Assembly: GCA_035221665.1 (NCBI GenBank)
Contig: CM069157.1
Span: forward strand, 14,632,001 to 14,696,000
Source of the DNA: Okamejei kenojei
Lineage: Eukaryota
Direction of reading: 5' to 3'
Length of the DNA: 64,000 bases
Positions within the stretch are counted from its first letter, which is position 1; each line of letters begins with the position of its first letter. The notes below the pieces were generated by a model that saw nothing but the letters and a program-made list of their open reading frames with translations, made no database searches and was not told the origin of the DNA. Position numbers and translations under genes: made by a program. Positions 6,330 through 62,315 of this stretch are shown here, in pieces.

Positions 6330-6531
6330 GTAGGAAGGAACTGCAGGTGCTGGTCTACACCGAAGATAGAATCAAAATGCTGAGGTAACTCAGCGGGTCA
6401 GGCAGCATCTCTGGAGAAAAGGAATAGGTGGCGTTTCAGGTCTGAAGAAGGGTCTCATCACCTATTCTCTTTCTCCAAAGATGCTGCCTGCCCAGCCCCA
6501 CTGAGTTACTCCATCATTTTGTGTCTATCTT
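6330..6531. mobile_element. Fold-back Penelope-like (hammerhead-motif) element
   Basis: aggaactgcaggtgctgg...ggcagcatctctggag arm, central gtctgaagaagggtctc, inverted arm ...gagttactccatcattttgtgtctatc. Confidence 0.7.
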
Positions 6532-6631
6532 TAAAAGAGTCATGACTAGAAGATTTACATTTGTTCCTCTGGTTGCTGGGGCCTCCCAGTCATCAATCTT
6601 ACCTGGGTAATGTAATTAATTCTTATCGCTG

Positions 6632-7130
6632 GTTTAGATTTAAGTTTATGTTCATTATCGTCACATATACCGAGGTACAGTGAAAAGCTTTATTTTGCAT
6701 GCTATCCTATCAGACAATATGCTACATAAATACAATCCAGTGAAACTGAAGTACATTATTAGACCAAAGGGAAAGATACAAAGTGCAGAATATAGCTTTC
6801 AGCATTGTAGCACAACAAAATATGTCGGAAGGAACTGCAGATGCTGGTTTACATGGCAGATAAACACAAAATGCTAGGGTAACTCAGTGGGTCAGACAGT
6901 GGGGCATCTCTGGAGTAAAGGAATAGGTGATGTTTTGGCTGGAAACCCTTCTAAGGGTCATCTACCCCATTTCTCCAGAGATGCTGCCTGACCCGTTGAG
7001 TTACTCCGGCATTTTGTGTCTATCTTCATTGTAGTGCAGCAGTTCCAGAGACAAAGTTCACTGTCCACAATGAGGTAGACATTGTACCCCAGCTTAGCGA
7101 AGAAGGGTTCAGAATCCTTATAATATATAA
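6632..7130 (-). mobile_element. Rex1/Babar-like LINE 3' fragment interrupted by a fold-back element
   Basis: Shares ttatcgtcacatataccgaggtacagtgaaaagc and caatgaggtaga with the copy at 46330-46630. Confidence 0.55.
6818..7026. mobile_element. Fold-back Penelope-like element with degenerate ~15-bp TSD
   Basis: Two inverted arms; flanks cattgtagcacaaca (6803-6817) and cattgtagtgcagca (7027-7041). Confidence 0.7.
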
Positions 7131-7783
7131 TATATCCTAGTCCTTCTTTGGACACCCCCGCTAGTGGAAGCACATATTGAGCTAACATTGCTCTGTTTGC
7201 ATCTGTCCTCCCAGTAACAGATTGTGGAGTGGTAGTGATGGCAGGCAAGGGACCAGAGCTCATGTAGCTTCCACCTTATTGATGGGGCAAGAATGACGCA
7301 GCGGAGAACGTCTTTTTGATAAAAGTAATCAATCATTTTGTCCAAAACAAAAATTGAACAGATACAGTTAGTCAGGACACCAGTTAGGACACTGGGGATG
7401 CTTTAGGATAAAAAGCTCCAGAGGTCTATTGCTGATGCAAGGGAGGCGTTTCGGAAGCAACTGCTATGACAATTTCAATACTCCTTAACTCAGTAGAGGT
7501 ATTCCCATAGAGACAAACCGTGGAGCGCATGCTATCCACCCTTAATGTCAGAGGCTGATAAATACAATGGCAAGGTTTATTTCATTATAAACTAGATTTT
7601 TTTTGCTTTTAAAAAAAACAACAGTACATGGTTAGGTTCTGCAGCATCAAGGAAGTTGTTGCCACTCCTCCCCACCCCCTCCCCACCCCCCTCCTAGTCC
7701 TTTTCCTTCCCAGTCTGCAATGTTTGACAAGCCTGGCAGAAACATGGTAAAATAAACAATATTTTCTATTTCTTCCCGTGTAG

Positions 7784-7888
7784 GTAAAAGCTTCACACTG
7801 ACAATCACTGTATTCACCAGCCCTCCTCAAGTTGCCACCTACCACAGAGCCATTAAAGTCACAGTGGACGGACCCAGAGAGCCACGCA
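7784..7888 (+). CDS. RUNX3: RUNX3-like internal coding exon (105 bp), C-terminal Runt domain
   Basis: Acceptor tttcttcccgtgtag| and donor |gtaagt. The phase-1 join to the previous exon gives (G)[34 protein letters not shown](R). Not in the ORF track; read directly from the sequence. Confidence 0.95.
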
Positions 7889-8194
7889 GTAAGTCAAAAC
7901 TCATATTATAAATATCAAACACAGAATACATTCATTCAGCATTAATTATCATCTGAGATTGGTGCTTTAATCAGTGGCAATTACTCCTCATGAATAGGTT
8001 TATTCACTGCTTTCAACCTAATTACGGAGTTGTGCAGTACAGTGATATCGATTAGTATATGTTTGCACTGAAAAGTTAAATACATGGTGAAAAGATATCA
8101 TGGAGGCTATTCATGTATGATTAACAACCATTCCAAAGCAGTATTAATTGATTGCAGTATTTAACGGTATGTTCTGCAGAGTAGAGGATTTGAA

Positions 8195-8450
8195 AACTGA
8201 AGGGGAAGCTCAAGGTGAGAGGGAAGAGATTTAAGATTCAACCTTAGGGGCAACTTTTTCTGGAGCAAGCTGCCAGGGGAAGCTAAAGAAATTGAAACAA
8301 TTACAACGTACAAGAGACATTTAGACAGATATATGGAGAGAAAGGGTTTAGAGGGATAGGAGCAGGCAAATGAGACCAGCCCAAAATACCAGCTTGGTCA
8401 GCGTGGACAAGTTGGGCTGAAGGGCTTGTTTCCATGCGGCATAACTCTAA
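8195..8450 (+). mobile_element. CR1/HER1 LINE 3' end
   Basis: aaggtgagagggaagagatttaa...ggcaactttt...gttgggctgaagggcttgtttcc, the same tail as 25810-26890. Confidence 0.75.
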
Positions 8451-9183
8451 CCCATCAATGGCTAACAGGATAAAATTGCAACAGATGAAGTATTATTCAA
8501 TAAATTGAAAAAATATTATTTATGAAAGATATGAACCTATAAATATTTAATAGCTAAAGGAGACTTCCATCTGGAAAAACAATACACCAACCAGTGTGCT
8601 GCACAATTTGTAGTCTTGGCCATGTTGCTGTGGATACTAGTGTTAAGTCGTGGCTGAAATCAGAGCATGCGAGACATGGAATGCACCCCACCACTAGTAT
8701 TCACACTCCAAATATTCAGATCCTTTAGCTGAATAATTTACTTAATTTACTTAACAAATAAGTAATTAGAAGCAAATTAAATGGAAGGTTTTATTTTGCT
8801 TTAGCCAGCTTGCATCTCTGCAAACTATAGTCTTGGAAAAGCCAAGCACTATGCTTATACCATGAGGTCAGGGTTTAGAAGTTGATGTGCATTTCAGGCA
8901 TGGTTCTGTTCCAAGGATGGGATAGAAACAGGTTTTAAATCACACTGCAGGTATGGTAAACCACAGAAATGTTCTACAGCTTCTGTAAGGATATGAACTG
9001 TAGAAACATGTCGTTTATTTGCTAACTGGGCTGTACGCTTCTTTTTATTGATAATTCCCATTAATCAAAGAACCAGGAAGGGATTACTTTGAAGTATTAT
9101 TAGAAACCAAAGGTTACACGGGAATAAACTTCGGTTACACGGGAATAAACTTTGGTTTATTCCCGTGTAACCTCCCCTGGATG

Positions 9184-60065: not shown

Positions 60066-60077
60066 TGAATTTTTTCT

Positions 60078-60163
60078 CAAAGTGTTGGAGTAACTCAACG
60101 GGTCAGGCAGCATCTCTGGAGAACATGCTAAGATGATGTTTTGAGTCTGGATGCTTCTTCAGG
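60078..60163 (-). mobile_element. Penelope-like single arm
   Basis: aaagtgttggagtaactcaacgggtcaggcagcatctctggag...cttcttcag. Confidence 0.6.
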
Positions 60164-60754
60164 TTTCTAATTCAATCTGGATTGTCCACCAACACATAAC
60201 AAAATCTTTGCAAAGTATAGAATTTAAACCTTTACATAAATCCTACTTTCCCAGTAACTAAAGCAGTTGAAGTCATATCAAATCTGCTGCAAAACGACAA
60301 CAGCATTGCGCTACTGTGGAATCCTCTCATTTGAATGGCTAATATAAAATGCACAACATTCTGCTAATGACAATCTTCCTTCTGCCCTGATCGTTCCACT
60401 ATAATTAGGTATGGAATTTAGCGCTGTCTGCCTTTCACCTGGAAAAAGTAGTCATGATGACTATGGTGGGAATAGTAGTAAACAAGTCAATGCTTAAGTA
60501 ATAAATCCAACACATGACGGAGGAATCTAATGTATCTTTATGTATTGCATTCATGTAGTGTGGAGGAATTTGTGAGCGAGTTATAGCAGGTTGCTTTGGT
60601 ACAGTTACCGTACACACTGCCGGGGAATGCCTCCTTATATTATCAGAGCTGAAAATAATTGTGATATTGGGAAGGAGGACAAAAATGTACATAAAAATAA
60701 GCAACCTTGCTCGTTTGCCTACATGTGGCAGTTTAACCCAAAAGGAAAAAAAAG

Positions 60755-60977
60755 CTTCACTCTAAAAGGGTGGTGGGTGTATGGAACGAACGTCCAGAGG
60801 AGGTAGTTGAGGCCGGAACTATCCCAACGATTAATAAACAGTTAGACAAGTACATGGATAGGACAGGTTTGGAGGATATGCGCCAAATGCAGATAGGTGG
60901 GACTAGTCTAGCTCGGACATGTTAGCCCATGTGGGCAAGTTGGGCCAAAGGGCCTGTTTCCAGGCTCTATGACTCTG
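60755..60977 (+). mobile_element. CR1/HER1 LINE 3' end
   Basis: gggtggtgggtgtatggaac...gggccaaagggcctgtttcc...ctatgactct. Confidence 0.85.
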
Positions 60978-61235
60978 AAATTGTTGTTTCTGACAGTTTA
61001 GTTTTCTCTGAATTCTGGGAAAAGTAATTTAAAAAAAATTGACTTACACCTGCAGTATAACCGAAAATGCAGACTTGATATCATCATTTAATTACACTAT
61101 TGTAAGTTATCTCAAATGCGCCGACTAACAGTCTGCCCTGTTGCATCTTGCCTGAGCCCCAGAAGAGTCAGTCTGAGCTGGCGACACACTCGTCAGTGAT
61201 CACCACTCTGTCTCAAAACACCCCTCAGGAGATCT

Positions 61236-61547
61236 ATTTAGTTTAGTTTTTTGGTTTAGTGATACATCGTGGAAACACGCCCTTTGTCCCGCCAAATCCA
61301 TGCCAACCATCGATCACCAGTGCTCATCATCACTCCTACACCCGAGGGTAAATTCACAGAAGCCAATTAACCTACAAACCTGCATGTCTTTGGGATGTGG
61401 GAGGAAACTGGAACACCCGGAGAAAACCCACGCGGCCACAGGGTGAACGTGCAAACTCCGCGCAGACAGTACCGGATCAGTCAGGATCATATCCGGATCT
61501 CTGGCGGTGTAAGGCAGCAACTCTACCGCTGCTCCAGTGTGCCACCC
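61236..61547 (-). mobile_element. HE1-type V-SINE
   Basis: Reverse HE1 with (tttag)n tail. Confidence 0.85.
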
Positions 61548-62076
61548 ATAAAATTTATTACAAATGCATAATCAGCCTCTTCCTTTTTAACTCATCAAGA
61601 TGAGTTGCTATCCCTCTTTTCAAAAGTGCTCCTTATATTTTTGTAAGCCTTGCTAAAAACATTCATTTGTTGAGCTGCCGCTTTGATTTATGTTTTACCT
61701 TCAGATCTATCTAACTTGCCATCTAAAAATTTCTCTCTACACAAACAGTTTTGGCAGGGAATTATTTTGTCTGGCATTACTAGGAGTAGACTTGTCATTC
61801 TGCATGGACCTGCTGGCTCCAAAGTAACTATCGATATTGCAAACTAGTTGCCTACCTCTCAACTCTCACCCTTCCCCAGTTGTGCAATAATGTCAAACAA
61901 ATGACAAATTATTTAAAATAACCTGAAAAATCACAGCCTAAACAAAATCAGCGTTGTCGTTGGGGAGGTGGGGCGGAAGAGATACTAGCAACAATAGTCT
62001 CACTCCTCTTCACTCATTGCACACGTGTCCATCTGCTTCAAAACGGGGTAGTTACTCCAATAGTTTTACTCTCTTA

Positions 62077-62315
62077 GCAGGAAGGAATTGCAGATGCTGG
62101 TTTATTGCAAAGACAGACACATAATGCTGGAGTAACTCAGCGGGTCAGGCAGCATCTCTGGAAAAACGGAATTGGTGATGTTTCAGGTCGGAACCCTTCT
62201 TCAGACCTTCCTTCAGTCCGAAGAAGGGCTCCGACCCAAAACGTCACAGATTCCTTTCTCTCCAGAGGTGCTGCCTGACCCTCTGAGTTACTTCCGCATT
62301 TTGTGTCTATCTGCA
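62077..62315. mobile_element. Fold-back Penelope-like element with perfect 13-bp TSD
   Basis: ttttactctctta at 62064-62076 and 62316-62328; both arms carry hammerhead-like heads back to back. Confidence 0.82.

Follow-up and report, generated by a model that had tools for sequence, protein, structure and literature searches.

Insertions of endonuclease-positive (EN+) Penelope-like elements (PLEs) carry at the head a second copy, inverted and 5'-truncated, together with a tail of 30-40 bp on one end and target-site duplications of 8-10 bp (PMC8557442; PMC3846280). Here we describe a dispersed family of short repeats, many of them fold-backs, in a 64,000-nt window of the skate Okamejei kenojei (assembly GCA_035221665.1, contig CM069157.1, positions 14,632,001 to 14,696,000, forward strand), and propose that its repeating unit, the arm, is probably the terminal pseudo-long terminal repeat (pLTR) module of a PLE, running from a hammerhead ribozyme to the start sites of reverse transcription and inserted by PLE enzymes. 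In Anolis carolinensis the Poseidon protein cuts and extends both target strands, and reverse transcription begins at a pair of tail-bounding sites 111-118 nt beyond the start of stem II; ribozyme-dead RNA inserts normally, making cleavage dispensable (PMC11167929). PLE hammerheads are marked by an extra base between positions 9 and 10.1, a G10.1-C11.1 pair and a palindromic 15.2-16.2, and in 2014 most minimal motifs were reported as single, probably derived from truncated PLEs, with some pairs lying close together on opposite strands (PMC4209133). Non-LTR retrozymes are tandem head-to-tail units, which average 363 bp in the one chondrichthyan reported (bioRxiv 10.64898/2026.07.22.740005). Further background is available in PMC2377424, PMC8969392, PMC6155905, PMC5499810 and 10.1101/2025.06.08.657570.

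The copies in the window share with EN+ PLEs (Penelope/Poseidon, Neptune) a head-to-head inverted copy, a tail on one end, a short target-site duplication and a hammerhead near the 3' end; they differ in having no open reading frame (ORF), and in 5' ends that are sharp at the ribozyme where those of PLEs are ragged. As in A. carolinensis Poseidon (PAc), some 110-120 nt separate stem II from the putative start of reverse transcription, two sites bound the tail and the template appears uncleaved. In PAc, however, the ORF begins in this stretch, whereas no ATG-led frame stays open across subfamilies in our translated arms. A frame does run open through 3 of the 15 translated long arms (39520-39648 and 14594-14716 on the minus strand, 32641-32763 on the plus strand), and most other copies have TGA at one codon of it; this frame may be a decayed remnant of an ORF start like that of Anolis Poseidon. 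The extra base, the G10.1-C11.1 pair, the palindrome and the mixture of mostly single motifs with opposite-strand pairs recall the minimal hammerheads of metazoan PLEs (PMC4209133), although the helices are shorter here (4 bp for helix II and 2-3 bp for helix I) than in the Schistosoma families of that study (7-8 and 4-5 bp). The portions of that study considered here, one supplement file included, name no sharks or rays. With non-LTR retrozymes the copies share a non-coding sequence, a type I hammerhead and a pLTR derivation, but they are dispersed ~130-nt solo units and inverted pairs, with hammerhead-bearing tandem units at 0 of 23 loci; the chondrichthyan retrozyme families listed with bioRxiv 10.64898/2026.07.22.740005 may include a relative. 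The class is known and the family apparently undescribed in the literature, though Dfam or Repbase may well hold a consensus.

A hidden Markov model (HMM) of 127 positions, built from arms of the window and searched against it, identified 36 arms, grouped in 23 loci that span 6333 to 62321 (Table 1), and gave no match in the reversed window or in any of 10 shuffles (11 control sequences). An earlier model-made note on this DNA, the sequence-only reading, had described a dispersed repeat at about 20 sites; all 20 of its coordinates fall on HMM loci, to which the search adds three (21640, 36637, 41458). The arms sum to 3,507 nt, or 5.5% of the window, and comprise at least three sequence subgroups. 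Loci lie on average 2.5 kb apart without periodicity, and uniform scatter fits their positions (Kolmogorov-Smirnov p=0.85); no copy occurs in the first 6.3 kb, where the sequence is AT-rich and poor in repeats. Twelve of the 23 loci are fold-backs, in which a minus arm is followed by a plus arm so that their 5' heads meet, and 11 are solo. The same note's description of the repeat as usually a head-to-head palindrome suits 12 of its 20 loci. One fold-back has a third arm (16043-16315), and there the two tailed arms abut tail to tail. Two search patterns had no match in GTDB genomes, and there was no match in phages and plasmids either. A tRNA-derived short interspersed nuclear element (SINE) was considered and rejected: no tRNA gene was called, a weak test for decayed heads, and the 3' flanks have no simple-repeat or poly-A tail.

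The ends of the arms support a PLE origin. In every one of the 12 fold-backs exactly one arm reaches the end of the model and has the tail (p=2.4e-4 against independent choice), in keeping with the earlier description of one complete and one truncated arm; what the second arm lacks is its outer 3' end. We measured 3' ends at 12 duplication-bounded loci (8 of the 10 with significant duplications and 4 below threshold, omitting 20270 and 36637, where the duplication match lies 20-27 nt away from an end). They fall at model positions 83-98 (short, n=10) or 128-135 (long, n=9), giving a tail of ~36 nt, and the long end lies ~120 nt beyond stem II. Of the 23 loci, 10 have flanking direct repeats above the 95th percentile of a cross-locus null, a number that 0 of 20000 permutations reached and that compares with 1/23 in an inverted-repeat control; their lengths vary from ~10 to 20 bp. 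At 39515 an empty site could be checked: the 16-bp duplication flanking this copy is single in uninterrupted copies of the SINE-like repeat that hosts it, for example at 9197-9440. The one-sided tail of 30-40 nt, the target-site duplications and the distance from ribozyme to end back the PLE origin that the sequence-only reading had proposed. The same measurements bear on a quite different explanation, in which the arms would be the terminal inverted repeats of a miniature inverted-repeat transposable element (MITE) or fold-back DNA transposon and the hammerhead match incidental. The family is palindromic, non-coding and of high copy number, as such an element would be, but its arms are unequal in 12/12 fold-backs, solo arms have duplications of their own (9799, 32326, 39515), duplication length is not fixed, and the Tc1-like element at 30228-31860 does not include the arm; we consider this explanation extremely improbable.

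At the other end, once two artefacts of a palindromic centre are set aside, 21 arms begin on the first core box or no more than a few bases from it, and only 3 of the 36 begin near the cleavage site. The unit starts ~30 nt upstream of the ribozyme cleavage site, and the sequence upstream of the heads has nothing in common among solo copies. Because the heads begin just before the ribozyme core and not at the cleavage site, the templates were likely uncleaved, and the 5' ends suggest that cleavage does not define the inserted unit. The 12 fold-back junctions fall in or beside the ribozyme stems; 5 have an overlap, 6 a filler of 3-17 nt and 1 a blunt join. Such junctions are also what would be expected if a single cDNA folded at its self-complementary head, copied itself and halted before the tail, which is how palindromic PLE junctions are interpreted in PMC3846280. 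Self-priming alone leaves unexplained why the second arm ends at the short position of solo copies (95-96 at 9799 and 27095), and we regard it as a credible but on balance doubtful account. Variants are common to both arms of a locus more often than to re-paired arms (p=0.00035, 11 pairs), as expected if each locus arose in one event. The fillers of 3-17 nt between heads are pyrimidine-rich, and at 39649-39672 a non-family filler of ~22 nt separates the head from the duplication. The tail repeats the motif CCAGCA, mostly 27 or 30 nt beyond its first copy, and each 3' end lies ~20 nt past one copy; it is speculative that these copies set the two start sites.

The head itself is that of a minimal type I hammerhead. 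The majority base among 21 head-bearing arms, 3 of which are also ragged at their first bases, reads CUGAAGA, an extra A, a 4-bp stem II closed by the G10.1-C11.1 pair, GAAA, a palindromic ACGU and a GUC triplet. The sequence-only reading had recognised this motif, and the majority base fits it at all core positions, including the extra base 9a and the palindromic 15.2-16.2. Helix II is paired in 84% of alignment cells, with one clear change of U-A to C-G. Helix I is 2-3 bp, shorter than the expected 4-5 bp, because the unit ends at that point and the 5' strand stops at its boundary. All 13 core bases are kept in just 2 of 21 heads, those of 18345-18447 and 39524-39648, both on the minus strand. 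The intact head of 18418-18449, also on the minus strand, has a 2-bp stem I and a 4-bp stem II in which C-G replaces the usual U-A pair, and the only arm that matches CUGANGA...CGAAACGU exactly does so at 18421-18447. A relaxed hammerhead descriptor found 3 sites in the window, against 3 summed across 30 shuffles. No Rfam hammerhead model matched the window at E<=1 or the intact head at E<=10; 18 sub-threshold Rfam matches, mostly of microRNA (miRNA) models to the hairpins, were dismissed as generic.

Decay is evident throughout. The CpG at C11.1-G12 is intact in 8/27 arms and that of ACGU in 12/30, and the median divergence of arms outside CpG is 15%. The core boxes had been expected to be better conserved than the arms; outside CpG their identity to the consensus is 0.86-0.98, against 0.90-0.92 in three downstream blocks, and a stronger constraint on the core is not supported in this window. 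Arms of one locus are 79% identical and arms of different loci 74%, and the hairpins are therefore not maintained. RNAalifold retained nothing but a 4-bp hairpin from 14 arms, and single arms (6 sequences) fold no better than shuffled sequence (z -1.1 to 0.6). The hammerhead-like fold is not the minimum-energy one for a monomer (-6.9 vs -8.8 kcal/mol) or for a cofolded pair, by an energy model that is weak for such motifs. The fold-backs are predicted to form long hairpins, with energies of -75 to -154 kcal/mol at the 7 loci folded (z -16.7 for 62076-62316). That the copies are working ribozymes is not supported: 19/21 heads have core changes, helix I is short and the fold-backs would be hairpins. 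By their sequence the copies are decayed fossils, mostly broken, because only two heads keep the whole core and CpG decay dominates.

These observations also weigh on a retrozyme-like element, active by hammerhead cleavage of tandem RNA, whose monomers or circles would be reinserted. The core boxes and palindromic ACGU that it calls for are present, and cleavage as dimers is published for such motifs (PMC4209133; reviewed in PMC6765202). Against it stand the absence of head-to-tail tandems at all 23 loci, a unit that starts upstream of the cleavage site, the mutated cores and the hairpins of the fold-backs, and we consider it very unlikely.

Connections to a coding element come from database proteins. 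A translation profile of three arms matched 10 proteins among 1,360 candidates, one of them a Leucoraja erinacea gene model with an insert 89% identical over 38 residues to the 14598 copy. P0013 terminates in an arm translation (85% identity, 27 residues), its arm unit lying ~350 nt (~118 codons) downstream of a stretch shared with P0008, P0014 and P0015; in P0008 a tailed arm lies ~50 nt (17 codons) upstream of the shared stretch. In the +2 frame this stretch is compatible with an acidic residue followed by hydrophobic residues up to a glycine and then a proline-x-glycine motif, a pattern that resembles the end of PLE GIY-YIG domains but that neither a Pfam match nor a named protein confirmed. 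Upstream of it P0015 allows a CX4CX2C pattern, resembling the Neptune linker described in PMC8557442. Read from these translations, the order in P0013 would be ORF end, 3' untranslated region (UTR) and arm unit, a link to PLEs that is likely but unproven, and the layout of P0008 suggests a partial tandem, or pLTR; the window itself contains no direct partial tandem. Two NCBI gene models, P0006 and P0009, hold a translated copy of the repeat and are probably annotation artefacts.

The sequence-only reading had also posited a separate non-autonomous family mobilised in trans. In its fullest form this would be a dedicated mini-PLE, a SINE-like partner with master RNAs of its own of ~130 nt, served by the same enzymes but from another template. 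The sharp 5' end of 21 arms, the absence of an attached upstream ORF or UTR in 36/36 arms and the several sequence subgroups agree with such an element, and non-autonomous PLE partners are on record (PMC8557442; bioRxiv 10.64898/2026.07.22.740005). We identified no internal promoter, however, and an equally short product would result if reverse transcription stalled at the ribozyme or began at an internal start on a monomeric PLE mRNA. In P0013, moreover, the arm unit is the 3' end of a longer element, and the copies may therefore be short products of coding PLEs. A separate family is accordingly not shown, and we judge it conceivable but short of probable.

We return to the preferred explanation, a terminal module of a PLE. 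This module would consist of a minimal hammerhead followed by ~95-130 nt reaching the element's two start sites; that the tail ends are such sites is taken from the literature, while the repeat, its ends, the tail asymmetry, the duplications and the decay are observed here. A PLE protein encoded elsewhere, with a reverse transcriptase (RT) and a GIY-YIG endonuclease, would make a staggered cut, and uncleaved RNA would be copied backwards from one or both start sites until copying halted just beyond the ribozyme core, at the RNA 5' end or a strong stop. A solo arm would represent use of one start site, and a fold-back the union of one long-site and one short-site arm, their heads joined through microhomology or a short filler. 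Each outer end of a fold-back would be a 3' end adjoining the duplication, which fits priming on both target strands, and neutral decay under CpG methylation would follow insertion. A stronger form of this scheme, that PLEs of this lineage produce mainly a mini-element of ~130 nt, fixed at its 5' end and reaching from ribozyme to tail, and that the strict long/short fold-backs record coupled two-site priming of both target strands by a dimeric PLE protein on one RNA, is one that we offer tentatively and think rather unlikely to hold in full.

Several results weigh against the terminal-module explanation. Motif scans and tblastn found no PLE ORF or 3' UTR in the window, Pfam searches of 31 of its 57 long ORFs gave no PLE domain, and database searches found no named in-frame PLE protein. 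The endonuclease reading of P0008 and P0013 is built on degenerate frame-shifting and an unconfirmed motif, and a strict GIY-YIG pattern had no match in P0015. At 13/23 loci there is no significant duplication, covariation in the stems is not above that of shuffles (35-287 of 500 were equally high), and self-priming fits the junctions equally well.

Table 1. Loci of the repeat family in the window, with arm composition, strand and flanking repeats.
Position	Strand	Feature	Flanking duplication or other detail
6333..6535		Fold-back: tailed arm (minus) and short arm (plus)	Hammerhead of plus arm with 10-nt deletion
6827..7041		Fold-back: minus arm tailed, plus arm short
9799..9898	+	Solo short arm	14 bp, 9785-9798 / 9899-9912, 2 mismatches
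11143..11333		Fold-back, partial loss of both heads
14598..14782		Fold-back, distinct subfamily, join within stem II
16043..16315		Three-arm locus (+,-,+)	Within 20 bp, 16023-16042 / 16316-16335, 5 mismatches
18345..18447	-	Solo short arm	Sole fully intact hammerhead motif
18418..18449	-	Intact minimal type I hammerhead	In solo arm 18345..18447
20270..20390	-	Solo tailed arm
21640..21705	+	Degenerate fragment, absent from the sequence-only reading	HMM E 9e-7
27095..27189	+	Solo short arm	10-bp flanking repeat, under significance threshold
28874..29081		Fold-back, distinct subfamily, plus arm tailed
32326..32459	-	Solo tailed arm	16 bp, 32310-32325 / 32460-32475, 3 mismatches
32598..32759		Fold-back: left arm 38 nt, headless; plus arm tailed
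36637..36687	-	Headless fragment, absent from the sequence-only reading
39515..39672	-	Solo tailed arm, 13/13 core bases, within SINE-like repeat	16 bp, 39499-39514 / 39673-39688
41458..41522	+	Degenerate tailed fragment without head, absent from the sequence-only reading	HMM E 4e-5
43636..43808		Fold-back
48200..48276	-	Tailed arm without head
48546..48781		Fold-back, plus arm tailed	18 bp, 48528-48545 / 48782-48799, 4 mismatches
53833..54039		Fold-back, most diverged of set	12 bp, 53821-53832 / 54040-54051
55424..55649		Fold-back	15 bp, 55409-55423 / 55650-55664, 2 mismatches
60076..60162	-	Solo short arm
62077..62315		Fold-back	13 bp, perfect, 62064-62076 / 62316-62328

A plus-strand RUNX gene contributes two Runt-domain exons to the window, at 1553-1709 (157 nt; E about 1e-26 to RUNX1/2 structures) and 7784-7888 (105 nt). 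These exons flank the first two loci, and all others lie downstream of the second exon; a motif scan of the window found no further RUNX exon beyond 7784-7888, and the downstream copies therefore probably sit in the next, long RUNX intron. All 3 sites of the relaxed descriptor are antisense to RUNX, which is not significant, 12 of 21 heads being on that strand. Other repeats are frequent. A Tc1/mariner-like transposon occupies 30228-31860; its inverted ends measure ~217 bp and are 95% complementary over 158 nt, and its HTH and DDE_3 domains are in separate ORFs. Fragments of a long interspersed nuclear element (LINE), presumably CR1-like, total 6.4 kb (25850-26888, 51713-52615, 58290-58916 and 15 more segments), with an RVT_1 match at 25781. 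A SINE-like family of ~310 nt, presumably HE1/V-SINE-like, is present at 9133-9500, 15225-15536, 19057-19379, 24466-24781, 33511-33821, 61236-61549 and elsewhere, and its 3' end resembles that of the LINE. Simple-repeat tracts at 21894-22131, 37723-37776 and 57701-57990 comprise (TG)/(GA)-rich sequence, poly-G and a local self-repeat.

We suggest that the main value of this family is for annotation: it makes up one-twentieth or so of the window, finds its way into skate gene models (P0006), and forms fold-back hairpins that mimic miRNA precursors. Its mechanistic value is moderate, in that short copies with readable duplications offer clean ends on which the inverted ends and one-sided tails of PLEs can be tested. 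Like the in vitro work on Anolis, the copies suggest that the inserted unit is not defined by ribozyme cleavage. Were the local density typical of the whole genome, skate genomes would contain a very large natural record of an unresolved step of PLE integration.

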